In this document: one piece after another, positions 41,427 to 57,475 of the stretch
Layout: every line of letters begins with the position of its first letter
Position numbering within the stretch: position 1 is the stretch's first letter
Source of the DNA: Escherichia phage SHIN8
Sequence record: PP627280.1
Strand: one strand, 5' to 3'
Length of the DNA: 58,460 nt
Made by a program: the position numbers and the translations under genes
The notes under the pieces: generated by a model
The model's database searches: none
Seen by the model: only the letters and a program-made list of their open reading frames with translations
What the model was told of the DNA's origin: nothing

Positions 41427-41489
41427 TTTTCTATCCTCTGTTGTGTTTCGATGTATGTATAATAGCGCATCCATGTGACAGGGCAAGAC

Positions 41490-41660: not shown

Positions 41661-41667
41661 AAATAAC

Positions 41668-42423
41668 CTATTTCAAATAGCGGGAAGTCATAATTGGATG
41701 CAAAGACACTTCTTCCTCAGATGTAACCACATTGCGCTTCCCTGAGCAAGGCACTTCTAATTCAATTTCAGCTGCCCCACAGACACGGCATTGATGTAAT
41801 GCAATTTCACCATTTCTATCCTTGATGCACTCAGGGGCGTCCGGATCGCTATTAATATATAATTCATGACCGTTTATAAAAGGTCGCATATCCCGTTTAC
41901 GATAAGCTACACCCGTTGACCCGAAACCATTAGCACCGCGCTCAGTAGTCTTGAGCTCGTCTACTTCTACCAATTGCACGCTGGGCAGCTTAATAAGCAT
42001 AGCTTGCGCAATGCGATCACCATGATTGACAGTAAAACTACCATCGTTATCGATGGTCATCTTAACCTTAAGTTCTCCAGTGTAGTCGCTATCAATGACG
42101 CCCACGCAGTTTGCCAGACGCACGTCATTTTTGAATCCGTGCCCGCTACGGGAATAGACCATAAGCGCGTAACCTTCAGGAATATCAAACGCTAACCCTG
42201 TGCGGAATATGTGCTCGTAAGAGAAAATGATTTGTTCACAACCGTCTTCACTTTTGAGATCCGCGTGCAGGTCAAAGCAAGCTGCCCCGGCAGTGGCAAA
42301 CGCTGGTAGAATTGCCGTGTCAGTTAAACGTTTCACACCGACCGGAATTGTGCTTAATGATGCAGCAAATTTTTCAACATCAATTGCAAAAGAATTTTTT
42401 GTGATATTTAATACATCAGTCAT
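41668..42423 (-). CDS. dut: dUTP diphosphatase with C-terminal zinc-ribbon extension
   Basis: 251 aa; GVIDSDYTGE, SRSG, RIAQ, GFGSTG motifs; C-terminal CRVCG...PCSG. Confidence 0.7.
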   Translation of the reverse strand: MTDVLNITKNSFAIDVEKFAASLSTIPVGVKRLTDTAILPAFATAGAACFDLHADLKSEDGCEQIIFSYEHIFRTGLAFDIPEGYALMVYSRSGHGFKNDVRLANCVGVIDSDYTGELKVKMTIDNDGSFTVNHGDRIAQAMLIKLPSVQLVEVDELKTTERGANGFGSTGVAYRKRDMRPFINGHELYINSDPDAPECIKDRNGEIALHQCRVCGAAEIELEVPCSGKRNVVTSEEEVSLHPIMTSRYLK

Positions 42424-42455
42424 AATTTCACCTTATTGAATTGAACCGCGATCAA

Positions 42456-42977
42456 TTAACCATTGTTGGAAAATTCACCGTGCAAAATTGCACGCATTTC
42501 CTTCAGCCATTGTGTCGCTTTATTTTTACCTTCATCATTAAATGGGAAATACCTATAATAGTTTTTACCATTCAGCCGAATCTGCGCTAACCAACTATTG
42601 CTGCTTTTAGATTTGTTATGTGTAAGACCTTTAACCCCGCTTGAATTGTTACTATATTTAAATCTATTATGTGCGTTCTGACTAGAATCGCAAGCCCTCA
42701 AATTGTATTGAGCATTATTCAGTTTATTGCAGTCATCATGATCAATTTCTTCAGGTTCTTCATCATAGAGCATTTTCCAGATTATACGGTGGACAAAATA
42801 TGAAATGCCATCAATCTTTGTTCTAAGATGACCAGTTGTATGAACCCATCCAACGCAAGATCCCTTTGGAGCTCTGTTGCTTCTATGAATCTTCCATGTT
42901 AATGCACCCGTCGACGGATCATAGTCAAACAGCTCCAGAAGCTGCTCTTGTGTAAGGTGTATAGGCTTCGCTTTCAT
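42456..42977 (-). CDS. HNH homing endonuclease with AP2-like DNA-binding domain
   Basis: 173 aa; HRIIW...DHDDCNKLNN HNH_3-type motif; AT-rich. Confidence 0.65.
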   Translation of the reverse strand: MKAKPIHLTQEQLLELFDYDPSTGALTWKIHRSNRAPKGSCVGWVHTTGHLRTKIDGISYFVHRIIWKMLYDEEPEEIDHDDCNKLNNAQYNLRACDSSQNAHNRFKYSNNSSGVKGLTHNKSKSSNSWLAQIRLNGKNYYRYFPFNDEGKNKATQWLKEMRAILHGEFSNNG

Positions 42978-43444
42978 GATATGAGTGAACCCCTCTCAAT
43001 CAAGTAGCATTTCGCGTGCGCTTTAAAAATAATGCGGTAGTCATCAAGACTAATTTCCGCGCGGATGGAATCTTTAACTTCATACCACTGCCATTCACCA
43101 TTACTGAAGACAACCGGATTAAGCGGTAGAACAACCTTCCATCCTTTACGTTCTATTTTATACATCAGAACTGGATATCTGCCAAGCTCTTTAGCAGATT
43201 GAACAGTCTGCTTCCACCATGTGTTTACTTGTGGCGTAGCATGGTTTTTTACTTCAACCGCATGGTGGCATGTATTGCTAATGTCGCAACCCCCGACCGC
43301 ACTTTGATTCTGGTTACGCTGAGCAATAGGTTTTTCCGGTAACTGCATCCCCAGCTCTGCGTAAATTTCGGCATAAATTGCATTAAAGAAGTCACATACT
43401 TCCCGCTCACCGCGTTGACCTTTAGCGCGAATATTTACTGCCAT
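42974..43444 (-). CDS. PD-(D/E)XK-type nuclease (possible Holliday junction resolvase)
   Basis: 156 aa; GQRGEREV...D...EVK arrangement. Confidence 0.4.
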   Translation of the reverse strand: MAVNIRAKGQRGEREVCDFFNAIYAEIYAELGMQLPEKPIAQRNQNQSAVGGCDISNTCHHAVEVKNHATPQVNTWWKQTVQSAKELGRYPVLMYKIERKGWKVVLPLNPVVFSNGEWQWYEVKDSIRAEISLDDYRIIFKAHAKCYLIERGSLIS

Positions 43445-43445
43445 T

Positions 43446-43748
43446 TCAAATCCCCTTTAAAGACTCACCAATAATCCGTTTAATTTTACATAGTCTGCGA
43501 ACTTGAGTAAAGAACGCTCCGTTTTTCCATGGTACGCCAAAATCTCCGGTTGTGATTGGTTGCATAAAACCTGGAAGAACAATGCTAGCGCTAGCTGTAA
43601 CTCCATCCGGTTTATTGTCAATAGTGATAATATAGTCTTCGTCCATTTTACTCATAATGCAACCAGACTCGACATCCGTCCCCATATAACGCACTTGCAC
43701 AGACCATCCTGATTGCGACAGGTGCTGTTTAAATTCTTCATATGTCAT
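43446..43748 (-). CDS. hypothetical protein
   Basis: 100-aa ORF. Confidence 0.4.
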   Translation of the reverse strand: MTYEEFKQHLSQSGWSVQVRYMGTDVESGCIMSKMDEDYIITIDNKPDGVTASASIVLPGFMQPITTGDFGVPWKNGAFFTQVRRLCKIKRIIGESLKGI

Positions 43749-43787
43749 ATAATCTCCAAAAGTTGAATATAAAACACTTCATAAAGA

Positions 43788-43816
43788 ATTTTATATTGAA
43801 GTTCTGTTGATCTCAA
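43788..43816 (-). promoter_or_regulatory. candidate sigma70-type promoter (TTGAGA-17-TAAAAT)
   Basis: hexamers read on minus strand, just downstream of a terminator and ~40 nt upstream of the 43748 start. Confidence 0.3.
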
Positions 43817-43820
43817 GGAA

Positions 43821-43852
43821 CAAAAAAGCCCAGGCATAAGGATTCCTGGGCT
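43821..43852 (-). terminator. intrinsic terminator
   Basis: AGCCCAGG-10 nt loop-CCTGGGCT followed by TTTTTTG on minus strand. Confidence 0.55.
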
Positions 43853-43958
43853 CTCTTGATTGTCGGATAGCTTACTTTGACTGCCGTCTTCGTCTATCCT
43901 GGCCTACTTGTACAGCCTCGCCAAAGGCTGGTGACGGTTTGGTACATCTGGCGCCGTC

Positions 43959-44095
43959 GCGTTAAACATCGTTCACATCGTTCAGTAAGTTGCGGGTTTA
44001 CCCTGTCCGCTCCAGGAAGCCCAGCGAAAGTAGTTGCTGTAAGGAGGTACAGCTACCGCTTTCAAGGGCTTGAGTTAAGCATCGTTCACTAAGTT
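43959..44095. repeat. direct repeats of CATCGTTCA(C/G)(TAAGTT) in a ~300-bp non-coding region
   Basis: copies at 43967-43976, 43977-43991 and 44080-44095. Confidence 0.7.
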
Positions 44096-44164
44096 AATGT
44101 TGTTAAATTGTTAAACCTCGTTAACTGTGGTTATCTTAAAGGATGCAGTCTTGAATGGCAAGCT

Positions 44165-44482
44165 TCAATTTTGCGCGGTCCCCTTTGCCGCTTTTGGTGC
44201 TAAAGTACCATCATTTAACATCAACTCAAAACCTGTTACTTGATCGGTTGGAACAATAGGGTAATTCATGATAGCCATGTGGATACAACACCCTCCATCA
44301 CATTCGTCGATGTATTCACTACCCCAATAGTATAAATGACCATCTCTTCGAATATCCATTGCTGTAGGGAAATCTACAAGAATTCTTTTGATTTCTTTTC
44401 GTCCTTCTTTATGCAGATTAGTTTCAATACGGATAAGCTCCGCATAAATTGCTTCACAGATAGTATTTACAATTCCCATCAT
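44165..44482 (-). CDS. hypothetical protein
   Basis: 105-aa ORF with CDGGCC cluster. Confidence 0.4.
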   Translation of the reverse strand: MMGIVNTICEAIYAELIRIETNLHKEGRKEIKRILVDFPTAMDIRRDGHLYYWGSEYIDECDGGCCIHMAIMNYPIVPTDQVTGFELMLNDGTLAPKAAKGTAQN

Positions 44483-44689
44483 TTACCCCCTTAAGTTTTG
44501 AATCATTCTATCACAGGCAGCTTTTACAGAAGAGTTCTGCCAGTCTTCTTCAATTTGTGAAGGTTCTTCAGGCGAATAAGCAGCACTAATCAAGCACTGA
44601 TTATAACCTTCAATATAAGCTTGCTTTGCGGTATCGACTATTGCTCGTAAAGCGATATTGAATAATTGTTGATCCATTTTACACCTCAC
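44483..44689 (-). CDS. hypothetical protein
   Basis: 68 aa; GTG start overlapping stop of upstream micro-ORF. Confidence 0.4.
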   Translation of the reverse strand: MRCKMDQQLFNIALRAIVDTAKQAYIEGYNQCLISAAYSPEEPSQIEEDWQNSSVKAACDRMIQNLRG

Positions 44690-44760
44690 AGAATGTACAT
44701 AAACCAGAAATAACCAGCTACGAAAATAGCACCCGCAAATAATTTTAAAAGCTCGAACAT
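44686..44760 (-). CDS. 24-aa hydrophobic micro-protein (MFELLKLFAGAIFVAGYFWFMYIL)
   Basis: ATG with strong GGAGGG RBS; stop overlaps next start (GTGA); candidate promoter upstream. Confidence 0.35.
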   Translation of the reverse strand: MFELLKLFAGAIFVAGYFWFMYIL

Positions 44761-44787
44761 TGTTCCCTCCGTTAACTTTATGCTGTA

Positions 44788-44815
44788 AGTATAGCAGGAC
44801 TTACGATGTATGCAA
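44788..44815 (-). promoter_or_regulatory. candidate sigma70-type promoter (TTGCAT-16-TATACT)
   Basis: hexamers on minus strand ~30 nt upstream of the micro-ORF. Confidence 0.3.
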
Positions 44816-44918
44816 CAACTTTAGACTTGAAATACATCTATAAAATAGCACGATTTGCCTTTACCTCTGATCCGTCTAGCTGTACTATTAACACATAAAC
44901 AGAGCGGAGGATTACAAA

Positions 44919-45143
44919 ATGGTCATGCTGAATAAAGTATATAGCACAATGGGCGCGGATTATAAAGTTGTACGTCACCCGCGTACTGGTAAATTTGAAG
45001 CGTATATCCGTCCAATGGGTGAAAGTTGGATGTATTACGGTACTTATGATGACGCTGAGCAAGCTTATAAAGAAGCGGAAAGTGCGGCGGAAGCATCCGA
45101 AATTATGGCAAGGTACGACGTCGATGATTACTACCTTAACTAA
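44919..45143 (+). CDS. hypothetical acidic protein, lone plus-strand gene inside minus-strand block
   Basis: 74 aa; GGAGGA RBS; followed by terminator. Confidence 0.45.
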   Translation: MVMLNKVYSTMGADYKVVRHPRTGKFEAYIRPMGESWMYYGTYDDAEQAYKEAESAAEASEIMARYDVDDYYLN

Positions 45144-45147
45144 CAAT

Positions 45148-45172
45148 AAAGGGCCATTTGGCCCTTTATTTA
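45148..45172. terminator. bidirectional intrinsic terminator
   Basis: AAAGGGCC-attt-GGCCCTTT with T-rich flanks. Confidence 0.5.
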
Positions 45173-47512
45173 TTCCTCTTCTCCTAAGTTTGCCATAATA
45201 CCTTCAACATCTTGCGTAATGCGCCAAGCGGCCCCAGTAAATCCCAGTTTGATAGTTTCCTCCCGTGTTACCGGAACAAGAGCACCCATAGCAACCATCT
45301 CTTTGATCGTAGACTCAATTGCTGCGGACAATCCGTGGTGATAGTTTTTAAACGCGGACTTACTTGCAAGACGAGTAGTAATATCACCCCGCGTGATAAT
45401 ACCTTCTTTACGCAGATCTACACGTTTAACTTTCACCCAATCTTTAGTTAGATAATTGACACAAACTTGGCACATAGTACGGATACGAGCTTCGTCATTA
45501 GTACCGATACCCCCACTATGCCATTCCTTCATAATGATATCCTGTCCATGACGCACAAAGTCTAAGGCCCATTGTACATGATAGGTCTGCACAACCGGAT
45601 TGATCCAGTTTTCTCCCACAGCTAACAGGGCGGATAGACGTAATACCTTCAGGTGCGCACGGTTCCACGGCTGACGGATCGCTTCGTCTTTGGTTGCGTT
45701 AATATTACGGTCACATTCATCGTTAAACTGATCACATAATGCTTCCGCTTCTGGACTAAACTGCACTTCAATACTTTGATGCTTTGCCATTGCGACTAAG
45801 GTGTGGTTAACAAGATGGCACACCATATCCCGCAAATGCTGATCCATTGTAGTCTGCTGGTTCTTGTTTAAAGGTGGTCGATCCCCTTCATAGCGGACAA
45901 CATGGAAACGGGATAAGAATCCATCCTCCATCATTTCACGGGTTAAAGCTTCAAAAAACGTGTCCGGTGTCGTTTCGCCCATGATGCTATAGGCCACACC
46001 TTGTTGAGCTTCCGTATTATTAGCCTTATCAGAATAAGACATACCACCAACAATAGACATCTGACCGGACTTTTGATAAACATCGGTAAGGTCATTCTTG
46101 AAGCTTTGCATCGGTGAACCTGCTGGCGCCGTTGCCATTGCTTTGATAATCTTACCAAACTCACCGTTCAAGTTGATAAAAGATTGTTTGTCTGCAAAAG
46201 ATTTACGCAGTGCGGAGCCGGAAGCGCATCGGTCAAAAGATACAAAGCTATGAATCTGCGGAAACGGTTCCTGAAGCTGGCTAACTATATTAGATAGGCC
46301 GCTGTTCAACGTTTCTTTACCAACACCTGAACGAGCAATAAGGACGAAATATCCATTAAGACCAGATTGCGGAATCTGCCAAACCTTCCCGCATACGCCA
46401 GCCATAAATCCTAGTGCTGTCACAATAGAAATTTCTTTCACTGGTCGGACAGATGCTTTGTAGATGTACTTCGCAAGCTCCCCAGCAAGTCCCGGCGGCC
46501 AGTCAATGGCGGTTGCATCAATAGATGTACTTTCTGCAACTACTGTCTGCCCCTGTGTTGTTTCAACAGTTACGGGCATTTCCGCTACCTGCTGCATTGC
46601 ACTGTGTGCCGCTTGCATACGGGCAGCATAATCCCGCGCCAGCGCCGCTACGTTTTCCTGGGCAATGCGCTCACGCTCCATGCGACCGCGACACATACGC
46701 AAGCAACGGTCAATATGAACATTGTTCTTATTAGCCTTCTCACGTTTGCCCAGTGCACTGTAACGGAACAGACGACGACATTGCTCATTACTTTCCGTGT
46801 AAAATGCATACATAGAAATAAGGGCAAGATCTGCTTCAGACTGGGAAGGGAAACCCATTTCAACCCATTCACCATTGAATAACCGCGCATACTTATCGCC
46901 GTTATCTGCTTCAAGTGCGCGCTGATGAATAGTTGCATCATCTTCTACCGGATCTTTTTCTACCAGTTCAATTTCATATGTCTTGCGCTGAAGATCAATT
47001 TCATTCACAAGCATAGTAAGGTAATGATCACGTTCTGCGACTGGTTTGTTGTAGACGGGATTACCCGTGCAGATAATAAAACGCTCCTGACTATAAACCT
47101 CGACACCATCACGTCGACGACCTTTACCGATGTTACCTCTTAACCACAGGTGGACACCCAAGCCTGAGCGACTCACTTCGGTGTAAGTGTCGAACGCAGT
47201 CATGATCTGTTCGAAGCGGCGCAACTGCTCCGGCGTCGTGTGCTTCTTGGGATCAGGTTCATTGGTTGCGTTCTTCACATCCAGGTCGATGCAGGTGAAC
47301 GGGTCTTGTGCAGTAAGCACAAAGCCAATATAAGGTTTATTGAAATGAGCGGCGCAACCTTTAGCAGCTTCAAACGTCATAAGCATATCCGGATCGGTAA
47401 CGTCCGCCGCCATCAAACGTCCAATATCGCTATCCCATACCAACGGCTTTTTATCCGCATCGGCGACCGCCCATTGTGGGAAAGCTTTAATTTCAGCGGG
47501 AAACAGTTCCAT
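45170..47512 (-). CDS. DNA primase/helicase (primase-polymerase-like N-domain plus P-loop NTPase)
   Basis: 780 aa; Walker A ARSGVGKETL in C-terminal half; acidic catalytic-like CIDLDV...GLGVHLWL N-domain. Confidence 0.65.
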   Translation of the reverse strand: MELFPAEIKAFPQWAVADADKKPLVWDSDIGRLMAADVTDPDMLMTFEAAKGCAAHFNKPYIGFVLTAQDPFTCIDLDVKNATNEPDPKKHTTPEQLRRFEQIMTAFDTYTEVSRSGLGVHLWLRGNIGKGRRRDGVEVYSQERFIICTGNPVYNKPVAERDHYLTMLVNEIDLQRKTYEIELVEKDPVEDDATIHQRALEADNGDKYARLFNGEWVEMGFPSQSEADLALISMYAFYTESNEQCRRLFRYSALGKREKANKNNVHIDRCLRMCRGRMERERIAQENVAALARDYAARMQAAHSAMQQVAEMPVTVETTQGQTVVAESTSIDATAIDWPPGLAGELAKYIYKASVRPVKEISIVTALGFMAGVCGKVWQIPQSGLNGYFVLIARSGVGKETLNSGLSNIVSQLQEPFPQIHSFVSFDRCASGSALRKSFADKQSFINLNGEFGKIIKAMATAPAGSPMQSFKNDLTDVYQKSGQMSIVGGMSYSDKANNTEAQQGVAYSIMGETTPDTFFEALTREMMEDGFLSRFHVVRYEGDRPPLNKNQQTTMDQHLRDMVCHLVNHTLVAMAKHQSIEVQFSPEAEALCDQFNDECDRNINATKDEAIRQPWNRAHLKVLRLSALLAVGENWINPVVQTYHVQWALDFVRHGQDIIMKEWHSGGIGTNDEARIRTMCQVCVNYLTKDWVKVKRVDLRKEGIITRGDITTRLASKSAFKNYHHGLSAAIESTIKEMVAMGALVPVTREETIKLGFTGAAWRITQDVEGIMANLGEEE

Positions 47513-47523
47513 GATTTATCCTT

Positions 47524-47739
47524 TTACTGAGAACTAACCATTGCACAACCGATGGCAGCAAATAAGTGCTTCTTAGTCTCGTTGATCACTTTCTCTGCAT
47601 CCAGATAGCTCTCATAATGTCCAAGGTAAATAATAGTCCCTGCAACCATGATATAAGCTGTGCGGTAATGCATGTAATGCCCAATGAACCATCCCTGCTC
47701 CCGAAGCTTATTTTGTCCAACTTCACTAAGTACCATCAT
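47524..47739 (-). CDS. hypothetical protein
   Basis: 71-aa ORF. Confidence 0.35.
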   Translation of the reverse strand: MMVLSEVGQNKLREQGWFIGHYMHYRTAYIMVAGTIIYLGHYESYLDAEKVINETKKHLFAAIGCAMVSSQ

Positions 47740-47939
47740 GACCTCCGACGCTTATCGCCTTGCATCTTTTCCAGGGCGGGCACTGCTAAGGAACGTTTGT
47801 AGATGTACTGGTTAGCGATTCTGATAGCGCCCGGGATGCTGTCACGTATGCGCGACATCTTAAACTTAGATATGCCATAACGGTCTTCAATTTCCGCCGC
47901 CGTTATGTAGTTCAAATCAAATTCCGATTCGTGATCCAT
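47736..47939 (-). CDS. helix-turn-helix DNA-binding protein (putative regulator)
   Basis: track ORF trimmed to ATG 47939 with GGAGGG RBS; YITAAEIEDRYGISKFKMSRIRDS HTH-like. Confidence 0.4.
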   Translation of the reverse strand: MDHESEFDLNYITAAEIEDRYGISKFKMSRIRDSIPGAIRIANQYIYKRSLAVPALEKMQGDKRRRS

Positions 47940-48004
47940 AATACCCTCCGTTACAACCGTCCACACAATACACAGTAAAGTCCTACTTTGCAACTATTTT
48001 TGCA

Positions 48005-48733
48005 TTATTGCGGAGTTGTGATAATATGGTTACCAACTTCTAACATAACGTCCTGCGGCTCTCTTCCCTGTCTTAAGCTAATGAGCCAATTATCAATATT
48101 AGGAAGAATATTTTTAGCCTGCTCAGAATCCCTGTATAGTGCAAGGTCTACCCATTGAGCCCCAAGCTTGACACGGATAGCGGTAGCGGTTTCGTAATGG
48201 TGCAGGGAACACGTAGGCCAGCGACCGCGATTATCCCAATCCTGGATATCGCCACTCCGGCGCATTCTGTACCAGCGATGGGTTAGTTTATCCATTTCCT
48301 TATCCGTCAGAGCATCCCCTTTAAGCAAAGCTTGGCGCTGTATCCAGGCCTTAAGCTCGGCGTTTTCCTTGCGCCCGGTTTTACCCTTATCTACTTTTAC
48401 CTTAAGTGCTTCCTCATAGGGATCGTTACCCTTGCCCATGTGGTAATTGAATTTGCCCGTATAGCTGCGAAGCTCTTTGGCGTCCAGCTCATGCCCCAGC
48501 TTATCGCTAACCCATGCAAGGAAAGCCGCACGCTCTGCATCCAGTTTACCCGCTTTTTGTCTTACCGCTTTTTTAACTGGTTGCTCCACATCTTCGTTGA
48601 AGTAATCCTCCACCATAGCAAGCGCCTGAGCCTTAGTGGGCACGCCCCGTAACCGCGAGCACGCTTGCACGACCCAGGCAGCAAAGCACAAATCCTTAAC
48701 CACAGTTTTAGATGTAATAGTTTCTTCGCTCAT
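48005..48733 (-). CDS. hypothetical protein (first gene of a leftward operon)
   Basis: 242 aa; GGAGGA RBS; candidate promoter immediately upstream. Confidence 0.45.
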   Translation of the reverse strand: MSEETITSKTVVKDLCFAAWVVQACSRLRGVPTKAQALAMVEDYFNEDVEQPVKKAVRQKAGKLDAERAAFLAWVSDKLGHELDAKELRSYTGKFNYHMGKGNDPYEEALKVKVDKGKTGRKENAELKAWIQRQALLKGDALTDKEMDKLTHRWYRMRRSGDIQDWDNRGRWPTCSLHHYETATAIRVKLGAQWVDLALYRDSEQAKNILPNIDNWLISLRQGREPQDVMLEVGNHIITTPQ

Positions 48734-49401
48734 AAATCCTCCTAGTGAACTGGTAATGCTACTATAAAACAGCTATTAGCTATTTGCAAGAATTGTTTTA
48801 ATATAGTGCTTAGTGGCGTACATAGTGGGCAAAGCGTGTATAGTACGCCGTTACTGGCTTTGTAAAAGTTTGCCACTATAAACCACTATCCCACTATTCA
48901 CTAATTTTTTATTTTTACACAGAGCAAAGTTTATAAGTTTACGGTTTCCCCCTTATTACCCCGTTTTCAAACAAAGAATTAGTAGTAGTAGTGAAAACGT
49001 GTAAATGCCACTATCACTACTATACTATTAATTATCTGAAAAAAGTTGGGAGTATACCCCTATAAACTTATAAACTTTCAGTCAACTAACTAAAATAAAA
49101 CTAATTAAACTAATATTAATAATAACTATAAATATATATAAAATAAGGATTTATTATTATTGTATATAGTACCTATTGGTATTATGTGATGAGTTTATAG
49201 TCACTAAATAAACTCTATAAATTTTAATAAACCTGAACGGATGCAAATCAAAAACGAGAAGTCAAGTGCTTTTGAGGGAAATTTATTGAACTATTGTGAT
49301 CGGAAGGTATATCAAGCTATAATGCGCTTAATCGCGGGATATTGGAGGAGGACTTTATTGCGCGGTTAACCGGACCAGTAGGAGGGCTGGCCCGGAGTAG
49401 T
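48734..49401. repeat. AT-rich 668-bp non-coding region with repeated CTATAAA/CCACTAT motifs
   Basis: CTATAAA at ~48763, 48877, 49050, 49127, 49216 and inverted at 49194; CCACTAT x3 at 48872-48897; (TAG)4 at 48981-48992. Confidence 0.6.
48761..48789 (-). promoter_or_regulatory. candidate sigma70-type promoter (TTGCAA-17-TATAGT)
   Basis: hexamers on minus strand, -10 about 28 nt upstream of the 48733 ATG. Confidence 0.35.
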
Positions 49402-49734
49402 TTAGAGCTGTACAGGTATGAAGTGGGCTAATGTGTCGTCTGACATGATACCCGACAATTTTTCGCTTACCCATTCGGACCAAATGCTATCCGGTTCCTG
49501 GCGGTGTACAAACCAGATTTCGGAAGTGCCTTCTTTGCGCATCGGCTTCACTTCTACAAGGAACTTGTCCTGCATGAGGCGGGTGAAGCAGACGCTGGTC
49601 ATTGGAACCGGCTTTTCGTGTTTATTGTAATAAGGAGTCAGTAATTTATTTCCGAAGTTAGCAACTTCATAAACTGTTCCTTTGCGAAGACCTCTGATGT
49701 CTGTGTAAGAGCGGATAAATGTTTTCATGTTCAC
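49402..49734 (-). CDS. hypothetical protein
   Basis: 110-aa ORF. Confidence 0.4.
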   Translation of the reverse strand: MNMKTFIRSYTDIRGLRKGTVYEVANFGNKLLTPYYNKHEKPVPMTSVCFTRLMQDKFLVEVKPMRKEGTSEIWFVHRQEPDSIWSEWVSEKLSGIMSDDTLAHFIPVQL

Positions 49735-49778
49735 TCCTAGGGCTCCCGCAGAAGCCCGTTGGTAGATGTGGTTATAGA

Positions 49779-50393
49779 TTATGCGTCCAGTCCGTTGTAT
49801 TTGCGCCAGGCGTAGAACTGAATGGCGACTGTTGTCCCGTTGTAAGAAGGCATTGCAGCTTTCATTTCTTTCAGCTCCGGCGTGCGACCCAGTTCAGCTA
49901 AAAGTTTGTCGCCCATTGCCCACACTTCGGCGGTTTTTCCTTTCAGAGGCTTGCGAGCGCCATTTTTGAAATCACAGCGAGCAGCTTTTGCATCCTGTTT
50001 TGGCGCGGCAGCTTTTGGCTCTTCAATTTTGATTTCAGAAACCTGCGTGGCAGCTTTTGCGTGTTTCATATCTTTCTCTTCCTCCTGCTCCAGAGCTTCG
50101 AGGCAGCTTTTGACGATTTCCGGATTTACCATCGGGCGCAGTACCGAGACGCTGGCAGCTGGCGCGGCGGTCGGTGCCGGGACTTTCTGCTCCGGCAGCT
50201 GCGCTTTTTTATGGTCGCGCAGCACCTGAAGCACTTCCTTCTCGACGATGTAAAAACCGATCTCGTCCTGATGGATAAGCTGTTCGTGTGCGTCGCGTGC
50301 AACCTGGCCCCAGCGGGTCTTAAGGGCGCGGCGTGCATTCGTTTTCATGGTGTAACGCATTTTGTCCTGTTCGCGGTGAGTTACTTTAGACAT
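49779..50393 (-). CDS. hypothetical protein
   Basis: 204-aa ORF, Ala/Lys-rich middle. Confidence 0.4.
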   Translation of the reverse strand: MSKVTHREQDKMRYTMKTNARRALKTRWGQVARDAHEQLIHQDEIGFYIVEKEVLQVLRDHKKAQLPEQKVPAPTAAPAASVSVLRPMVNPEIVKSCLEALEQEEEKDMKHAKAATQVSEIKIEEPKAAAPKQDAKAARCDFKNGARKPLKGKTAEVWAMGDKLLAELGRTPELKEMKAAMPSYNGTTVAIQFYAWRKYNGLDA

Positions 50394-50483
50394 GGTATAG
50401 CTCCTTCTGTTAGATTGTTTAGTTGTCTTGCTAAGTTGACTTATTATTGCCCAGTCGGATCAACTAGGCAAGATATAAATCAC

Positions 50484-50708
50484 TTATTTAACCATTAAGG
50501 CCCATCTTTTATAGCCGTTCAGCTCCAGTCTATGACCGTGATCGTTGCAATAACGTTGGATATTATTAAAGTCGTTATCATTCATATCGCTAACATCAAT
50601 ATTAAAATAGTTGCGCTTTGCAGCTGTAACGTATTGGGACAATTGTATTGAGTACAGATGTTCAATGTTGTCGATAATAGCTTGCTGAACTTTAGTGATA
50701 GTAGCCAT
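50484..50708 (-). CDS. hypothetical protein
   Basis: 74-aa ORF. Confidence 0.4.
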   Translation of the reverse strand: MATITKVQQAIIDNIEHLYSIQLSQYVTAAKRNYFNIDVSDMNDNDFNNIQRYCNDHGHRLELNGYKRWALMVK

Positions 50709-51046
50709 GATGCAACCCTTTTTATGTGGTTAAGCAGTATTTCTTTGTTGAAGTAATAATAGCCTTGCATCGTGATATTGAATAGGCCAAAAGTGCTATT
50801 TTAGATCACTATTACATCTACAGCTTTGCAGTAACGCTACGCTAAAAATGCAAAGTCTTACGTTTGCAAAGAAAGTGGATTTTATGTACATCACTCTTAG
50901 TACGTATAACGTCTATTATGTTAAATAGCTAAGTTATTGATTTATGGTAAATCTTGTATCAATTCGGACGTTATAGGAGTCTAACGTATTGATTTATAAG
51001 GGTGTAAAATTTTGCTGTTTGTAGCGCATAAAAAGGAACAAACCGG

Positions 51047-51063
51047 GATGTCATAAAATGACA
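51047..51063. promoter_or_regulatory. candidate operator palindrome ATGTCAT-aaa-ATGACAT in divergent control region
   Basis: perfect 7-bp inverted repeat next to TATAAA-like elements between divergent gene blocks. Confidence 0.3.
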
Positions 51064-51168
51064 TGTGTTTTGTCAGTATAAATGCCACGTTTGGCCTAGA
51101 CATGGATCAAGTCATGTTGTACTATATAGTCAAAGGAAAGATAAAGCTGAAAGGCGGAGGAAAATAAA

Positions 51169-51318
51169 ATGAGAAAGTTTAAAGTCATGTACTACGGTAA
51201 CTACATTGGAGACGTTAAAGCTCCGAACCGTGCTGAGGCAGAAGGTTTCGTCCGCGCAGAGATGCAACTTGGAATCGCTGATTTTGCAGCCATTATCGAA
51301 CTAGTAGAGGTATTTTAA
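51169..51318 (+). CDS. small hypothetical protein (49 aa), not in ORF track
   Basis: ATG with GGAGGA RBS, first gene of the rightward block. Confidence 0.35.
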   Translation: MRKFKVMYYGNYIGDVKAPNRAEAEGFVRAEMQLGIADFAAIIELVEVF

Positions 51319-51319
51319 T

Positions 51320-51460
51320 ATGCCACGCAAATACACGCTTACACGCGCACAGCACGCGTTATTAATTGCAGCAATGCGCGCAGAATATGCAGTTCATGGC
51401 TGGCATAGTGCCATGATGCGCGGTAAAAGCATATATGCGGACATACTCTCGCAAGGATAA
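51320..51460 (+). CDS. small hypothetical protein (46 aa), not in ORF track
   Basis: ATG 2 nt after upstream stop. Confidence 0.3.
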   Translation: MPRKYTLTRAQHALLIAAMRAEYAVHGWHSAMMRGKSIYADILSQG

Positions 51461-52025
51461 CGCACACAGCAGCACCACAGCGAGCTAATGTACATAGGTA
51501 ATGGTAATGCATTACCAACACACAACGAGCACGCTGTACCCCACAAAGCGGCGCTAATTTCAACACTCACAGGCTGTACGTTAACTCGTACGGCCTGCTC
51601 TGCTATATGCACGCCACATACGCAGCCAGCTCACAGTGAACATTAATATAATCACGAATGAAATGGATTCGTTTGGAAGAATAACAATTCTTGCAGTCAC
51701 AGACCGGTCCAATGAGCCGGCTCATAGACCCCACCTAGGATCATCAGGGTACTAATAATCACCCGAGGGCGCCTTATCCATCCTGATAGTAAGTCCACGC
51801 CTAAATCTCACCTGTCACATCCCTGTCCACCTACATCCATGACCCCACCTACCTTCTTTTTGAATATATTGCGCTCATCCTTTCTAAATATATGGATTTT
51901 GGTAGTAAATTCTGAGTCGTCAACGTATAATTCGTCTTGTAGCTGCTCCATAGCTATCATCTTTAAGCGGATGCAACCAATTTCTATCAGTTCACACCTG
52001 TTTTTAGAGCATCGAGGAGGTATTT

Positions 52026-52277
52026 ATGTGCGACTCCAGTGCAAGCGCTGCACCCAGCACCTCCAGCAATGTGGTTACAGAGGTAAATGCAATGCGATTA
52101 GGCCCATATCGCGGCTATTATGGTCGTGCAGCATGGAATGACGCTACTCAACGTTTTGAAGGCTGGATTATCTGTCCGGAACGTGTTAAATTTCACTCCG
52201 TAAAAGAGAAAAATATCGTTCTTAATTTTCAAAAATGTGTCACTAAATATGTAGAGGAGCAGGAAGAATGCGTGTAG
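52026..52277 (+). CDS. hypothetical protein
   Basis: 83 aa; AGGAGG RBS. Confidence 0.4.
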   Translation: MCDSSASAAPSTSSNVVTEVNAMRLGPYRGYYGRAAWNDATQRFEGWIICPERVKFHSVKEKNIVLNFQKCVTKYVEEQEECV

Positions 52278-52510
52278 AAGACGAGCAAAAGACAGTTGAC
52301 TACTTCGGAATGCAAATTGTTGTTCCGGAATGGGTTAAATGGCTTGCTGTCGATGGTGACGGCAAATTATTCGGTTATGAATGTGAGCCCGACATTTTAG
52401 TTAATGTAGATTGGGATAAATGGTACAGTGAAGAAGGTAAATGCCGCTGCATTACAGAAGTCATCCTTGAAGAAGAACATTGGTCACAAACCTTAGTGGA
52501 GCTTTTTTAA
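52268..52510 (+). CDS. hypothetical protein (paralogue of 52852-53148)
   Basis: 80 aa; shares VPEW..AVDGDGK..Y.CEP motif with 52852 ORF. Confidence 0.4.
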   Translation: MRVEDEQKTVDYFGMQIVVPEWVKWLAVDGDGKLFGYECEPDILVNVDWDKWYSEEGKCRCITEVILEEEHWSQTLVELF

Positions 52511-52800
52511 TGCACGTAGAAGATATTGTTGAAGGCAAAGAGTATCGTTTACTGACCGATATTGGCGGTGTCGGATATACTCCGGATGATGCGGCTTGTT
52601 TTAACGTCCTTCCGCAAGGTGCTATCGTGACAGTTAACAAGGTTGTTACCGATTTATACAGCGTTCATGACGGCAGATGGCCACATGCAGTTATTGTCAC
52701 CTTCGGTAAAGATGGTTATGTGGACCTTGATGGCGAAGACGATACTTACGAAGTTGCGTATACAGGTCTGGTAAGTCCCAATTTCCTGGAAGAAGTATAA
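52510..52800 (+). CDS. hypothetical protein
   Basis: track ORF trimmed to ATG overlapping upstream stop (TAATG). Confidence 0.4.
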   Translation: MHVEDIVEGKEYRLLTDIGGVGYTPDDAACFNVLPQGAIVTVNKVVTDLYSVHDGRWPHAVIVTFGKDGYVDLDGEDDTYEVAYTGLVSPNFLEEV

Positions 52801-52851
52801 TTATCAATCTATAATGGGCTCTACGGAGCCCTTAATTATCTGGAGGTTGTT

Positions 52852-53148
52852 ATGCTGTATTTAGGGATGGACGAAACTGGACACGCGATTCCTTCCGTTA
52901 ACAAGGAGACGCAAGTATTTACCGACTATTACGGGTCTGCTGTCCCTGTTGAGCCCTGGGCTAACTTTATCGCTGTAGATGCAGACGGTAAAGTTCATTG
53001 TTATGACGCCAAACCTTCTTGCTATGAATCTGGTAAGCAATGGATGCTTGGCGTATACGGATTACATGTGCGCTACTGCGGTGAAGTTGACATTGAAGGT
53101 GTGGACTGGCGCGATACGTTGAAGGAGATTAAAGATGTCCGCGGCTGA
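52852..53148 (+). CDS. hypothetical protein (paralogue of 52268-52510)
   Basis: 98 aa; VPVEPWANFIAVDADGKVHCYDAKP. Confidence 0.4.
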   Translation: MLYLGMDETGHAIPSVNKETQVFTDYYGSAVPVEPWANFIAVDADGKVHCYDAKPSCYESGKQWMLGVYGLHVRYCGEVDIEGVDWRDTLKEIKDVRG

Positions 53149-53221
53149 AGTTACGACATTTATAATAGCTTTTGCTGTTGCTTTATTCCTTATAGCTAAG
53201 TTAGATTTAATGATGGGATAG
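53135..53221 (+). CDS. 28-aa hydrophobic micro-protein, not in ORF track
   Basis: ATG with GGAG RBS; MSAAEVTTFIIAFAVALFLIAKLDLMMG. Confidence 0.3.
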   Translation: MSAAEVTTFIIAFAVALFLIAKLDLMMG

Positions 53222-53224
53222 TTT

Positions 53225-53449
53225 ATGCGCTTACTCATGGTGTTAGGCGTTATACTTGCCGCTTTCGTTGTATTTGCAATTGTAGACTCTAAAGAAATGG
53301 AGCGGCAAAACTGCCAACGTACTGGTAACAGCCGTGAGGATATCATTTGGCAATATATTTACGATGCAAAAGGTAATGTTATGTCAATGTATCCTCAGGT
53401 TATTACTGAGTATGAATATAAATGCAATGACCGTAACAGGTGGAGATAA
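53225..53449 (+). CDS. small membrane-anchored protein
   Basis: 74 aa, N-terminal hydrophobic helix. Confidence 0.4.
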   Translation: MRLLMVLGVILAAFVVFAIVDSKEMERQNCQRTGNSREDIIWQYIYDAKGNVMSMYPQVITEYEYKCNDRNRWR

Positions 53450-53451
53450 TA

Positions 53452-53643
53452 ATGGATAGACTATCCGATGAGCGCGTTGCTAAGCTTGCAGAATATGACT
53501 GTGCAAGCAATGAGGAGGTTATGTTTTTAGCACAAGAGGTGAAGGAACTTCGAGCTGTAGCAAAGGACTTCCTGCGTCGTAATAAATATGGTCCTTTGTT
53601 CTATCGTGATTTGTATAACCGTTTTAAGGAGATTGTGAAATGA
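53452..53643 (+). CDS. hypothetical protein
   Basis: track ORF trimmed to ATG with GGAG RBS. Confidence 0.35.
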   Translation: MDRLSDERVAKLAEYDCASNEEVMFLAQEVKELRAVAKDFLRRNKYGPLFYRDLYNRFKEIVK

Positions 53644-53909
53644 TTACCGCTCAAGAAGCTCGTGAATTAAGCGATAAGCTGGATATTAGCGAAGATATTG
53701 AATTTATCAGTAACAGCATTCGCGTAGCTGCTACAAAGGGATACAATAAAGTATCACTGGTAACAAAATACGGCGCTGTTGGCAATCCTGACACTCAAGA
53801 CCCGACAACTATGAAGATTGCTAAATGGTTAGCTGATTCTGGTTTTACGGTGTTATATTATCCTTCAATGGACCAACGTGATAACGAGCGTACTGAGGTA
53901 GCATGGTGA
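53640..53909 (+). CDS. hypothetical protein
   Basis: 89-aa ORF. Confidence 0.4.
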   Translation: MITAQEARELSDKLDISEDIEFISNSIRVAATKGYNKVSLVTKYGAVGNPDTQDPTTMKIAKWLADSGFTVLYYPSMDQRDNERTEVAW

Positions 53910-53977
53910 TTGAAGAAAATATCAAATATTGGAAAGGCTTTATTGACGAAATGTTGAAACCATTGGAGAAGAAATAA
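53903..53977 (+). CDS. 24-aa micro-ORF translationally coupled on both sides
   Basis: ATGGTGA overlap with upstream stop and TAATG overlap with downstream start. Confidence 0.25.
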   Translation: MVIEENIKYWKGFIDEMLKPLEKK

Positions 53978-54369
53978 TGCTATTAGTCGTCACCGGAGGT
54001 CGAGATTTTAAGCATGTGGAGTATATTTACGCTCAATTGGATAAGCTGCATATGCAAAGAAGGATAACCACACTTCGCCACGGTGACGCTGACGGTGTTG
54101 ACCGGATTTGCGCACATTGGGCAGAGCGCAACGGTATTAAGACAGAAGCGTTCCCTGCCCCGTGGGACAATCTTTCCTTACCAAATACAAAGATACGGTA
54201 TAACGCCAAGGGTGCTTATAATGCACAAGCTGGCGCTTACCGCAATCAATTGATGCTGGATACTGATCCTAAACCAGATCACGCTATTGTATTTCCTGGC
54301 GGAGCTGGTACTATGGATATGTACAGACGGATTAAAGCATCCGGTATTCCTTACACTTTAGCGGAGTAA
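53977..54369 (+). CDS. Rossmann-fold nucleotide-binding protein (SLOG/DprA-like, putative)
   Basis: 130 aa; LVVTGGRDF, HGDADGVD, IVFPGGAGT glycine-rich motifs. Confidence 0.4.
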   Translation: MLLVVTGGRDFKHVEYIYAQLDKLHMQRRITTLRHGDADGVDRICAHWAERNGIKTEAFPAPWDNLSLPNTKIRYNAKGAYNAQAGAYRNQLMLDTDPKPDHAIVFPGGAGTMDMYRRIKASGIPYTLAE

Positions 54370-54372
54370 ATA

Positions 54373-54843
54373 ATGGCTGACGTTAAAACTATTGTTGATG
54401 TAATGGATGAGTCCAAAGACTGCCAACTGAAGAAGTCGTTTGAAGTAAAACAGGTTACAGAGACTCAGTTAGTCTGTAATTTTGCGCGTTATTGTGGACT
54501 GGGGCGCGGGAAAGACTGGAACGGGCTTATTGTTATGCCCACATCACAGATCCTCGTTTACGTCCGCAATATTGTAGAAGATCTTTTGCGTCTTCAAATA
54601 GATATTGGTGACGTAGAAATTAACATGACCGCGAGCTCTACCATTGTGGTTAAATGGCAGTCGGGCGAGACACTGCGTTTGGAAGCGTGCCATTGTGCTA
54701 AGAGCCTACACCACCTGCGCGGTTGTCATTACCAGTTCGTTGGGTTTGTACATCCGCAAGGGTTAAGCGAGCGTACGGCGCTGGTAGCGCGTTTGCTGCT
54801 GCGTCCTTATAATAACGAGCTGGAAGTTATATACGAGGCATAA
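54373..54843 (+). CDS. hypothetical protein with Cys/His cluster
   Basis: 156 aa; CHCAKSLHHLRGCH. Confidence 0.4.
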   Translation: MADVKTIVDVMDESKDCQLKKSFEVKQVTETQLVCNFARYCGLGRGKDWNGLIVMPTSQILVYVRNIVEDLLRLQIDIGDVEINMTASSTIVVKWQSGETLRLEACHCAKSLHHLRGCHYQFVGFVHPQGLSERTALVARLLLRPYNNELEVIYEA

Positions 54844-54844
54844 A

Positions 54845-55051
54845 ATGGAAACTCCATTAGCTAAACAAATGATAGAGCGTGCGGATCGGGACGGTTTACC
54901 GGAAGACCATGCTATGCGTCGAACCGCCCAAGTGTTTGACGAGATTAGCGTTAAATATGCTATGGGTAAGAGCACCCCTAAAGCCTTATTAGGTGCTTGG
55001 GCTCGCGCTCGACGCTGCTGGTGTAACTATACCGGAGAACAGCTTATATGA
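54845..55051 (+). CDS. hypothetical protein
   Basis: 68-aa ORF. Confidence 0.35.
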   Translation: METPLAKQMIERADRDGLPEDHAMRRTAQVFDEISVKYAMGKSTPKALLGAWARARRCWCNYTGEQLI

Positions 55052-55470
55052 TCAAACACGTTAAACAGCCAACGTTGAATACATGCGTTTCCGCGTGTTT
55101 GGCAATGATCCTTAATAAACCTGTTGAGACGGTTATTAAGGAATTTCACAGTCGTTATTATAACAACTGGGAAATCACTATCAGCGAATATTTGACTAAA
55201 AACGGCGTCCAGCATCATTGTTCAGAAGGTGGTGGGCGTGAAACTTTGCATATGGGAGGTTTGTTCCTGTGCACGGTGCCAAGTCTTAATATTCCTGGCG
55301 CATTGCACCAGATTGTGATTGATATGACGGATCACAAGTTTATTGTGCATGATCCAATTAAAGGATGGGAAGGTAAAAAGTTCTATGTTGGTCCGGATCA
55401 AGATCCTGAAGAGCCTGGAGCTTTTATCATTCATACTTGGGTCAAAGACGTTGAAATCCTGCTTTATTAA
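55048..55470 (+). CDS. papain-fold cysteine peptidase (C39-like domain, putative)
   Basis: 140 aa; QPTLNTCVSACLAMIL N-terminal Cys motif and HQIVIDMTDHKFIVHDP His motif. Confidence 0.45.
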   Translation: MIKHVKQPTLNTCVSACLAMILNKPVETVIKEFHSRYYNNWEITISEYLTKNGVQHHCSEGGGRETLHMGGLFLCTVPSLNIPGALHQIVIDMTDHKFIVHDPIKGWEGKKFYVGPDQDPEEPGAFIIHTWVKDVEILLY

Positions 55471-55500
55471 TTTTCTTGCTATCACATAACCCTTCATTGT

Positions 55501-55534
55501 ATTGTGTACCCATCGAATAAGAGGGGTACACAAT
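55501..55534 (+). promoter_or_regulatory. perfect 11-bp hairpin occluding RBS/start codon of downstream membrane-protein gene
   Basis: ATTGTGTACCC-12 nt-GGGTACACAAT; 3' arm includes the first two bases of the ATG at 55533. Confidence 0.4.
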
Positions 55535-55718
55535 GACCAAACTATACGCCGGATTGTTTTTATTTGCGACGTTGATGTTCGCTGGGCTTTATACCTATAC
55601 AGTAGTCGAACAACCTTCCACGGTTATCCGAATCTTTGCAAGTACAGGGCTTTGCATCTGTCTTATTCTATTTGTTTTATGCATTGTTATTATCCAAGAC
55701 CAAAGGAAAGTTAAATGA
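55533..55718 (+). CDS. small two-helix membrane protein
   Basis: 61 aa, two hydrophobic segments. Confidence 0.45.
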   Translation: MTKLYAGLFLFATLMFAGLYTYTVVEQPSTVIRIFASTGLCICLILFVLCIVIIQDQRKVK

Positions 55719-56179
55719 CCACAATTGCGTTTGATGGAAAAGTATTAGCTGCGGACCGTGGAGTTATGCGCGGGGAAGCTGTGACTGCTTATAAGAAAGT
55801 TCATAGCGTGAATGGACATCGTGGACGGTTTTTACTGGGCTTGTGCGGTTTGACGGCATTTACCGATCAGGTGTTGCGTTATTTTAATAGCGCGGAACCT
55901 GTTAAGTTCCCTGATATTAAACTTTACAGTAAAGATGATGATTACGGGCAAACTTGCGGTCTTGCTGTCACTCCGGAAGGTACTTGCCATTTTATTTATA
56001 ATGATGGTACTTTGAGTGAGCCCATGCTGGATGGATGGGGATCTGAGGGTAGCGGTTGTGTGTTTGCTGCTGGTGCATTAGCTGCTGGTGCAAGTGCGAG
56101 CGAAGCTATTGAGCTGGCAATTAAACACACCACATGTGCATTCCTGGGAGTTGATACAATATCGTTTGAGGGTTTTTAA
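55715..56179 (+). CDS. HslV-like Ntn-hydrolase (proteasome beta-subunit-like peptidase, putative)
   Basis: 154 aa; N-terminal MTTIAF (Thr after Met), KKV, GLCGLTAFTDQVLRYF and GSEGSG segments parallel HslV. Confidence 0.5.
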   Translation: MTTIAFDGKVLAADRGVMRGEAVTAYKKVHSVNGHRGRFLLGLCGLTAFTDQVLRYFNSAEPVKFPDIKLYSKDDDYGQTCGLAVTPEGTCHFIYNDGTLSEPMLDGWGSEGSGCVFAAGALAAGASASEAIELAIKHTTCAFLGVDTISFEGF

Positions 56180-56180
56180 A

Positions 56181-57439: not shown

Positions 57440-57443
57440 CTGA

Positions 57444-57466: not shown

Positions 57467-57475
57467 GGAGGGAAC

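Follow-up and report, generated by a model that had tools for sequence, protein, structure and literature searches.

The 58,460-nucleotide genome of Escherichia phage SHIN8 (PP627280.1), analysed here over its full length and called the window, carries at positions 48734 to 49401 an AT-rich intergenic gap that is conserved across the genus Seuratvirus, non-random and functionally organised. By comparison with related phages, we give roughly even chances to the reading that this gap is the replication origin of the phage, with an attached regulatory or auxiliary platform of repeat arrays that includes the promoter and operator of the replication operon. An origin is suggested because repeats in opposite orientations flank the most meltable DNA, upstream of the replication operon and between divergent promoters, because the repeats match the allele of the helicase and because the layout resembles that of origins served by self-loading initiator helicases, the closest being those of SaPI and P4. 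The initial annotation had offered three possibilities, namely, an origin, a promoter array or a binding platform for host or phage factors. An origin-like organisation appears favoured, with repeats flanking the least stable DNA at the minimum of the GC skew, and so does a platform for phage factors, with two repeat families that change together with specific neighbouring genes. The promoter array found no support because the number of sigma-70-like sites is at chance (3, against 3.0 ± 1.9 in shuffled sequences) and because the corresponding repeats of sister lineages (CCCTAT, GGAAT and NAAAAC) are not -10-like.

BLAST searches against phage records identified the window as the genome of a Seuratvirus (Queuovirinae) coliphage. 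Identity to SLUR75, KS_A3 and KurtStettler (Bas22) is 97 to 98% over 2.4 kb around the gap (48000 to 50400) and 99% within the gap alone. Ten Seuratviruses were aligned and further loci were inspected, giving about 20 relatives in all, including the distant STP-SP5 and yong3. In every Seuratvirus examined, a gap of 630 to 830 bp, non-coding in the relatives, was retained at this site, including in STP-SP5 and yong3, though nucleotide similarity is largely gone in these two phages. The element occurs in one place per phage record and is always syntenic. The whole gap had no match in PLSDB plasmids, and a 115-bp conserved block near its right edge had no BLAST match in 5,426 Escherichia coli genomes. 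Left of the gap lies a four-gene operon encoding a 242-amino-acid (aa) orphan protein, a 67-aa protein, a 71-aa protein and a 780-aa primase-helicase. The comparison resolved the gap into a leftward promoter, two dyad arrays bearing a first repeat (motif A), copies of a second repeat (motif B), an AT-rich core and the 115-bp block. The core, the copies of motif B and the primase-helicase gene are located as follows.

45170 to 47512, minus strand: 780-aa primase-helicase, with an archaeo-eukaryotic primase (AEP) prim-pol domain, a helix-bundle domain (HBD), a DUF3987 helicase and a C-terminal domain.
48929 and 48937: inverted copies of motif B, in the left arm of a 16-bp inverted repeat.
49062 and 49070, plus strand: motif B (ATAAAC) left of the core, in the tandem TATAAAC-T-TATAAAC at 49061 to 49075.
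49072 to 49086: invariant 15-mer AAACTTTCAGTCAAC, identical in 19 of 19 sequences (18 related loci and the window) and in STP-SP5.
49082 to 49231: AT-rich core of 150 bp, the proposed DNA-unwinding element.
49177 to 49185, plus strand: putative extended -10-like element TGgTATTAT, within the invariant core and kept in STP-SP5.
49193 to 49198 (GTTTAT, inverted), 49208 to 49213 (ATAAAC) and 49227 to 49232 (ATAAAC): motif B right of the core.

Motif B therefore stands in both orientations and on both sides of the core, and its sequence follows the allele of the primase-helicase. This protein matched PHROG 3022 (E 4e-275), the Pfam NrS-1 pol HBD family and DUF3987 (E 1.2e-12), and its N terminus matched PriRep5 of the Staphylococcus aureus pathogenicity island (SaPI) SaPI5 (7ola; E 7.6e-11). 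Two alleles were found in the genus, allele 1 being at least 98.6% identical to the window protein and allele 2 76 to 78% identical. Residues 41 to 280, which span the AEP prim-pol and the HBD, are 100% identical between the two. All divergence falls in the DUF3987 helicase and C-terminal domains, with residues 620 to 780 about 49% identical, which implies a recombination boundary within the primase-helicase gene. In a 200-bp segment around the core, phages with allele 1 hold five or six ATAAAC and zero to two NAAAAC copies, and phages with allele 2 hold no ATAAAC and five or six [ACT]AAAAC copies, with offsets and orientations unchanged. In the latter, the left tandem reads CAAAAAC/CTAAAAC and the right copies are replaced by GTTTTTG, GCAAAAC and ACAAAAC. 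The pairing of motif and allele had no exception in the loci inspected (17 of 17), and the BLAST coverage of other records was consistent with it. Moreover, it survives the exchange, across both groups, of the intervening cassette that carries motif A, and the neighbouring 110-aa and 204-aa genes show no two-group structure matching the primase alleles. A third primase allele, nearer to allele 1 in residues 300 to 620, was found in yong3, together with nine copies of ATAAAC. The change from AAAGTTTATAAGTTTA in the window to AAAGTTTTGGGTTTTTGG in SA80RD looks compensatory because the arms of the inverted repeat are inverted motif-B copies that switch together; a long inverted repeat kept as an RNA or cruciform stem by compensatory change was rejected as the primary explanation. 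A perfect palindrome with an 11-bp stem, AATAAAGGGCC ATTT GGCCCTTTATT, lies at 45145 to 45170, just past the stop codon of the primase-helicase gene, and looks like a bidirectional terminator between convergent genes.

The core is the least stable DNA of the window. Using nearest-neighbour energies, positions 49085 to 49184 gave -96.1 kcal/mol, against a mean of -135.4 ± 7.6 for 100-bp segments, which is 5 standard deviations below the mean stability; the next candidate (-111.8) is about 16 kcal/mol more stable. The core also ranked lowest at segment lengths of 60 and 150 bp. It contains 13% GC over 100 bp, and its centre (49126 to 49190) is nearly invariant across the genus. The cumulative G-C curve reaches its global minimum at 49200, separated by roughly half a genome from its maximum at 21000. 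Minus-strand genes have a skew of -0.11 to -0.15 left of the gap and of about 0 to +0.07 right of it, so the polarity turns at the gap and not at the divergent gene switch near 51.8 kb. As side observations, ATTGGTAT in the core and GTGG in the repeats resemble recognition sites of the NrS-1 primase, which we take as a lead and not as evidence. Close to the divergent switch of the early genes lies the next AT-rich gap (50863 to 51012), which ranks second in the window for duplex instability at a length of 150 bp; within it, the IHF consensus WATCAANNNNTTR is matched twice in tandem (50930 to 50942 and 50982 to 50994, minus strand).

Left of the core, the motif-A repeat family is arranged in two dyad arrays.

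48802 to 48904: array 1, with three nested inverted pairs of a single half-site, motif A, spaced by 8 to 11 bp.
48803, 48811 and 48822 (plus ATAGTA at 48840): left half-sites ATAGTG(G) of array 1.
48873, 48883 and 48891 (plus TCACTA at 48899): right half-sites CCACTAT of array 1.
48926 to 49078: array 2, a nested dyad of 153 bp.
48926 to 48941 and 49063 to 49078: outer arms of array 2, inverted copies of motif B that form a perfect 16-bp inverted repeat.
48980 to 48993 and 49009 to 49022: inner arms of array 2, TAGTAGTAGTAGTG and CACTATCACTACTA.

Motif A was defined as a lineage-specific motif of 6 to 7 bp and corresponds, in each lineage, to the top enriched k-mer of the syntenic gap.

Window: CCACTAT, 5 observed against 0.1 expected.
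SA80RD, Greed and CSP1: CACTAT, 9 observed against 0.42 expected.
CAjan, Seurat and slur01: CCCTAT/ATAGGG, 12 observed against 1.4 expected.
Skure, KS_W4, VogelGryff and STP-SP5: GGAATAA/TGGAATA, 6 to 8 observed against about 0.2 expected (GGAATAA, 8 against 0.24).

Positions and dyad layout are shared by these lineage variants. Every copy in array 1 has been switched to CCCTAT/ATAGGG in CAjan, Seurat and slur01, and the CAjan copies stand in the same places and the same dyad arrangement as CCACTAT in the window, with CCCTAT copies overlapping the spacer and the -10 hexamer of the leftward promoter. Since all copies are replaced in concert, the site appears to be read by one specific factor. 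The exchanged unit extends from the 67-aa gene through the 242-aa gene and the leftward promoter to both arrays. Between CCACTAT and CCCTAT phages, the primase is at least 99.7% identical, and the 242-aa and 67-aa proteins are 44% and 58% identical, respectively. As single-stranded DNA, array 2 folds with a z score of -4.3 to -5.0 relative to shuffled sequences; its counterparts gave -3 to -6 in other phages with the 242-aa protein (-2.6 in CAjan) and -0.8 in Skure.

Several of these repeats had been noted in the initial annotation, and the comparison changed how most of them are read. The region is AT rich as described there, with 32.8% GC against 44.3% for the window and a trough of 10% at 49100 to 49149. 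That it is the largest non-coding stretch holds by the annotations of relatives only, its 630-bp homologue being the largest in the CAjan, SA80RD and KurtStettler stretches seen. The five direct and one inverted copies of CTATAAA were all found (plus strand, 48762, 48876, 49060, 49126 and 49215; minus strand, 49194), accounting for 5 of the 11 plus-strand and one of the three minus-strand copies of the window. As a single motif, CTATAAA did not stand; its copies mostly sample the ATAAAC family, plus the -10 hexamer of the leftward promoter. CCACTAT is repeated as claimed, in four plus-strand copies (48873, 48883, 48891 and 49008) and one inverted copy (48822) instead of the three reported, and five of the six copies in the whole window fall in the gap. 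In 2000 dinucleotide-preserving shuffles of the region, neither the count of CCACTAT (5 observed, 0.11 expected) nor that of CTATAAA (6 observed, 0.56 expected) was reached. An unbiased scan of all 7-mers ranked ATAGTGG/CCACTAT first, with a Poisson P of about 1e-7 that survives correction for about 8000 7-mers, and CTATAAA second (1.7e-5); when judged more crudely against the commonest 7-mer of the shuffled sequences, CTATAAA alone is only borderline, its 6 copies equalling the 95th percentile (6). The (TAG)4 tract is present at 48980 to 48991, inside an inverted repeat CGTTTTCA/TGAAAACG (48962 to 48969 and 48992 to 48999). Its label as a microsatellite was dropped, since the inner arms of array 2 show that it is one arm of a dyad of degenerate half-sites; CAjan carries TAGGGGTACTAGGGTA at this position. 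The minus-strand promoter TTGCAA-17-TATAGT was recovered at the left edge (48789 to 48761, 9 of 12 consensus positions). The plus-strand open reading frame (ORF) and its upstream extended -10 element are likewise both present, the ORF as 42 codons plus stop at 49241 to 49369, and we consider that it is probably no gene.

Next, the proteins that could read these repeats were evaluated. According to annotated relatives, plus-strand structural genes run from the terminase to about 24 kb, a leftward DNA-metabolism block occupies about 24 to 52 kb and the remainder consists of small plus-strand genes. The gap sits within the leftward block, with small early-type genes of 110 aa (49402 to 49734) and 204 aa (49779 to 50393) on its right. 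On its left, besides the primase-helicase gene, are the following genes.

47524 to 47739, minus strand: 71-aa ORF with a weak HNH-associated/AP2-like match.
47736 to 47939, minus strand: 67-aa protein (phrog_11967), a predicted Xis/MerR-type winged helix-turn-helix (wHTH).
48005 to 48733, minus strand: 242-aa orphan protein (phrog_27223), the first gene left of the gap.

The AlphaFold2 model of the 67-aa protein (predicted local distance difference test score, 86) has the beta-alpha-alpha-beta-beta-alpha topology of excisionase and MerR winged helices. Its best Foldseek matches were Tn916 Xis, BldC, other excisionases and MerR N-terminal domains, with template modelling scores of 0.55 to 0.65, and no Pfam Cox or HTH_17 match reached threshold. 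In the putative recognition helix, both CCACTAT lineages have the sequence ISKFK[ML]SR, compared with VSRYKLCR for the CCCTAT lineage and LSRRKLCS for the GGAAT lineage. A homologue was found in every Seuratvirus examined, including phages that lack the 242-aa protein, and the yong3 homologue was annotated by its submitter as 'regulatory protein cox'. Beyond the genus, a small wHTH-like gene adjoins the primase on its upstream side in Vid5 (Vidquintavirus; L020, 3257 to 3490) and in JenK1 (Nonagvirus; L021, 3252 to 3488). The predicted fold suggests that the 67-aa protein binds DNA and is a candidate binder of the motif-A repeats. The 242-aa protein is co-inherited with the motif-A arrays. It had no Pfam, NCBIfam or fold match, and it belongs to only two clusters at 50% identity among 1.8 billion representative proteins. 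Its gene is absent from Skure-type phages, STP-SP5 and yong3, and a scan of IMG/VR with the family returned only two further loci. The 71-aa AP2/HNH-like ORF was rejected as the repeat binder because it occurs or not among close relatives irrespective of the repeat type. In Skure, this operon includes an AP2-like ORF of 93 aa.

The edges of the gap carry two promoters that look real, judging from their hexamers and their retention in relatives, and the right edge also holds an ultra-conserved block.

48761 to 48789, minus strand: leftward sigma-70-like promoter TTGCAA-17-TATAGT, 28 nt upstream of the 242-aa gene, predicted to serve the 242-aa/wHTH/primase operon.
49241 to 49369, plus strand: 42-codon ORF with no Shine-Dalgarno sequence (AACGGATG).
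49282 to 49396: ultra-conserved block of 115 bp, with the rightward promoter and two hairpins (49328 to 49369 and 49370 to 49395).
49294 to 49323, plus strand: rightward promoter TTGTGA-18-TATAAT, matching 10 of 12 positions, the joint-best sigma-70 match in 40000 to 58460.

The TTGCAA hexamer of the leftward promoter is kept in CAjan-type phages. A 44-aa ORF that lies over this promoter and array 1 (48742 to 48876, minus strand) is annotated as a coding sequence in KurtStettler (bas22_0069) and KS_A8 and is probably a spurious gene call. The 115-bp block is 99 to 100% identical in 12 of 13 relatives, compared with 75 to 98% for the flanking genes, and is thus more conserved than the neighbouring coding sequence. 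In STP-SP5, both hexamers of the rightward promoter are kept, five spacer bases differ and a plus-strand 158-aa gene follows. In SLUR76 (L012, 2086 to 2540) and Dru_SM1 (L011, 2378 to 2835), the sequence after TATAAT is replaced by another leader and a plus-strand HNH endonuclease gene. The 110-aa gene is displaced by the same insertion, and homing endonucleases may use the conserved block as a landing site. The rightward promoter is probably real because its hexamers are kept in STP-SP5 and plus-strand genes follow it in STP-SP5, SLUR76 and Dru_SM1. In the window phage, this promoter points towards the 3' end of the 110-aa gene, which is read leftward. The 42-aa ORF had no Pfam or PHROG match, and Skure, Dru_SM1 and STP-SP5 have other sequence, with an in-frame stop, in place of its 5' half; its ratio of nonsynonymous to synonymous substitutions is uninformative because only 7 substitutions occur among 10 phages. 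It is probably not a gene.

Some other functions for a conserved gap were considered. A DnaA-dependent origin was not supported, as there is no cluster of DnaA boxes and their number is not above chance: a search for TTWTNCACA gave one relaxed match in the gap (TTTTACACA, 48913 to 48921, between the arrays; not conserved in SA80RD-type phages) and three in the window, against 7.5 expected. No IHF sites beyond chance were found in the gap. A MITE-like (miniature inverted-repeat transposable element) mobile element bounded by the 16-bp inverted repeat was not supported, the element being single copy and syntenic and the arms being inverted motif-B copies. A cos or pac site is unlikely because the terminase genes lie at the other end of the map. 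The window contains no tRNA and no tmRNA.

From what was directly observed (the repeats and their enrichment, their concerted replacement, the allele association, the instability of the core, the skew minimum and the genus-wide layout), we infer every step of the following mechanism. The primase-helicase would recognise the ATAAAC repeats through its variable C-terminal half, melt or load at the core (49082 to 49231) and prime there. The CCACTAT arrays would be bound by a protein of the cassette, the 67-aa winged-helix-like protein and/or the 242-aa orphan, and this binding would help the origin fire or autoregulate the leftward promoter. The divergent edge promoters (48761 to 48789, leftward, and 49294 to 49323, rightward) would bracket the element and may aid its opening. 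In a stricter form of this model, which we hold to be unlikely, the origin would be modular and need two keys, a module of the wHTH (with or without the 242-aa protein) and motif A and another of the helicase C terminus and motif B, combined with one invariant core. Here, the 100%-conserved prim-pol domain would start synthesis at a fixed site in the core, and the invariant 115-bp promoter block would supply an activating or regulatory transcript. If this were true, module swapping would set the replication compatibility between co-infecting Seuratviruses.

Several observations weigh against reading the gap as an origin. Each covariation comprises two or three lineages only (for motif B, effectively two plus yong3). 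The primase-helicase and the AT-rich core are about 1.6 kb apart, and over this distance linkage alone could yield the match between allele and motif. The skew minimum is shallow, and the curve comes close to it again at 52000. Conservation of the core centre could reflect a promoter, given its extended -10 element, and not an unwinding or priming site. For the candidate binders, the Foldseek matches of the 67-aa protein are non-significant (E 0.3 to 2) and its Pfam matches are below threshold (E 0.026 to 0.15), and the 242-aa protein has no recognisable DNA-binding fold. Dru_SM1 is a mosaic (L011, 1700 to 2350), with CACTAT arrays left of the AT-rich core and a Skure-type GGAAT array right of it; this GGAAT array is found with the CCACTAT-type 67-aa allele and not with the Skure type, which misfits a cassette of one protein and one repeat. 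Vid5 and JenK1 have homologous primase and wHTH genes, yet they carry no comparable gap upstream of the primase. Finally, the searchable literature holds no Seuratvirus data on origins, replication, binding, transcription start sites or transcriptomes.

The chief rival, a possible explanation that we nevertheless rate as somewhat doubtful, is that the gap is purely a transcriptional control region without origin function. It would then stand between the replication (middle) operon and the small early genes, a winged-helix protein of the Cox/Xis type would bind the phased repeats and switch the divergent promoters, and the core would be a promoter region rich in UP elements. The edge promoters are indeed the best-supported single elements of the gap: directly ahead of the first gene of the operon, the leftward one is the sole sigma-70-like site, and for the rightward one, the conserved STP-SP5 hexamers and the plus-strand genes that follow in STP-SP5, SLUR76 and Dru_SM1 have been described above. 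The overlap of the CCCTAT copies with the leftward promoter of CAjan, the 8- to 11-bp spacing of motif A, the extended -10 element in the invariant core, the excisionase/MerR-like predicted fold of the small protein and the 'regulatory protein cox' label in yong3 point in the same direction. It leaves unexplained why motif B changes copy for copy with the helicase portion of the primase-helicase, why the core duplex is so extremely unstable and why the skew turns here and not near 51.8 kb, and promoter-like sites occur at chance frequency. Transcriptional control accounts well for motif A and the promoters and poorly for the motif-B link, the core and the skew. For motif A, the two readings are not exclusive.

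Two further explanations were considered. In the first, which we consider very unlikely, the functional heart of the gap would be a small RNA, non-coding or antisense, transcribed from the invariant block, with the remainder as spacer. The promoter at 49294 to 49323 would produce a transcript from near 49330 with two hairpins, running antisense into the 110-aa gene or priming or activating replication. This would fit a block of 115 bp that stays 99 to 100% identical while its flanks diverge, a promoter with 10 of 12 consensus positions, the predicted two-hairpin fold (z = -2.2) and the lack of a following plus-strand gene in the window phage. Nevertheless, Rfam 15 gave no match at gathering scores in the whole window and none at E ≤ 1 in 48650 to 49500; no intrinsic terminator was found in 48500 to 49600, the hairpin at 49370 to 49395 having no T tract on either strand; and the invariance of the block leaves no covariation with which to test an RNA structure. 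Moreover, the transcribed part appears dispensable because everything past the -10 hexamer is replaced in SLUR76 and Dru_SM1, and an RNA accounts for none of the repeat systems. The least probable of the explanations considered is that the gap is a mosaic junction or landing pad, a recombination-prone spacer left over between exchangeable modules and homing-endonuclease sites, in which the repeats arose by slippage or duplication and have no binding function. Recombination breakpoints do lie inside the gap (near 49020 to 49040, 49232 to 49281 and 49396), and HNH genes are inserted at or near it in several relatives. However, slippage does not place one motif in both orientations at conserved offsets, nor does it switch all copies together in sister lineages; conservation in parts of the gap exceeds that of the flanking genes, and the element is single copy and absent from E. 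coli genomes and plasmids.

The Queuovirinae are phages with 7-deazaguanine-modified DNA, including several members of the BASEL collection, for which no origin or initiator specificity has been described. The present analysis offers a precise origin candidate, with the core at 49082 to 49231 and repeat sets named to the base, together with two candidate promoters, and the natural allele swaps predict which protein reads which repeat. If confirmed, the gap would serve as an origin with which these phages could be engineered or propagated by means of plasmids, and as a compact system for studying how AEP prim-pols and DUF3987 helicases choose a start site.

Lastly, the gap was compared with known systems. 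The P2 Cox protein binds arrays of short direct repeats, and the gap resembles Cox and excisionase systems in having a small, putatively winged-helix protein next to 6- to 9-bp repeats about one helical turn apart and between divergent promoters; it differs in that the similarity in fold is weak and the phage lacks an integration system. Lambdoid ori-O modules and iteron plasmids combine a Rep protein, iterons, an AT-rich DNA-unwinding element and an autoregulated rep promoter. The order of AT-rich element, repeats, promoter and first replication gene is similar here, as are the exchange of repeat sets with an adjacent protein gene and the possible operator role over the promoter. In contrast, the repeats are 6 to 7 bp long instead of 17 to 22, form mainly dyads, lie outside the gene and are not accompanied by a DnaA-box cluster. 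The ori and crr of the satellite phage P4 contain octamer-scale repeats in both orientations and in two separated clusters, and the P4 alpha protein is a fused primase-helicase whose C-terminal domain recognises these repeats. Short repeats in both orientations, two clusters and a fused primase-helicase are shared with the gap, and the primase fold differs. In SaPI origins, an AT-rich region is flanked by 5- to 6-nt iterons of opposite orientation, to which a self-loading Rep or Pri-Rep helicase binds through its C-terminal winged helix (PMC9371898). As in SaPIs, short repeats of 5 to 7 nt in opposite orientations flank an AT-rich segment near a primase-helicase gene, and the repeat sequence matches the C-terminal allele of the helicase (PMC9371898); the AEP primase domain is, in addition, homologous to PriRep5, as described above. 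The SaPI origin lies immediately downstream of rep, whereas the left edge of the gap lies about 1.2 kb, and the AT-rich core about 1.6 kb, upstream of the primase start, with three small genes in between. Moreover, the helicase is of the DUF3987 type and not of the SaPI Rep type, the similarity found is limited to the primase domain, and the gap has an additional, independent set of repeats that comes with cassette proteins of its own. DUF3987 proteins have been shown, in another mobile element, to be helicases partnered with prim-pols (PMC11724360). Overall, this comparison suggests that the gap is best filed as an uncharacterised addition to the class of iteron/AT-rich origins, with a modular architecture of specificity.

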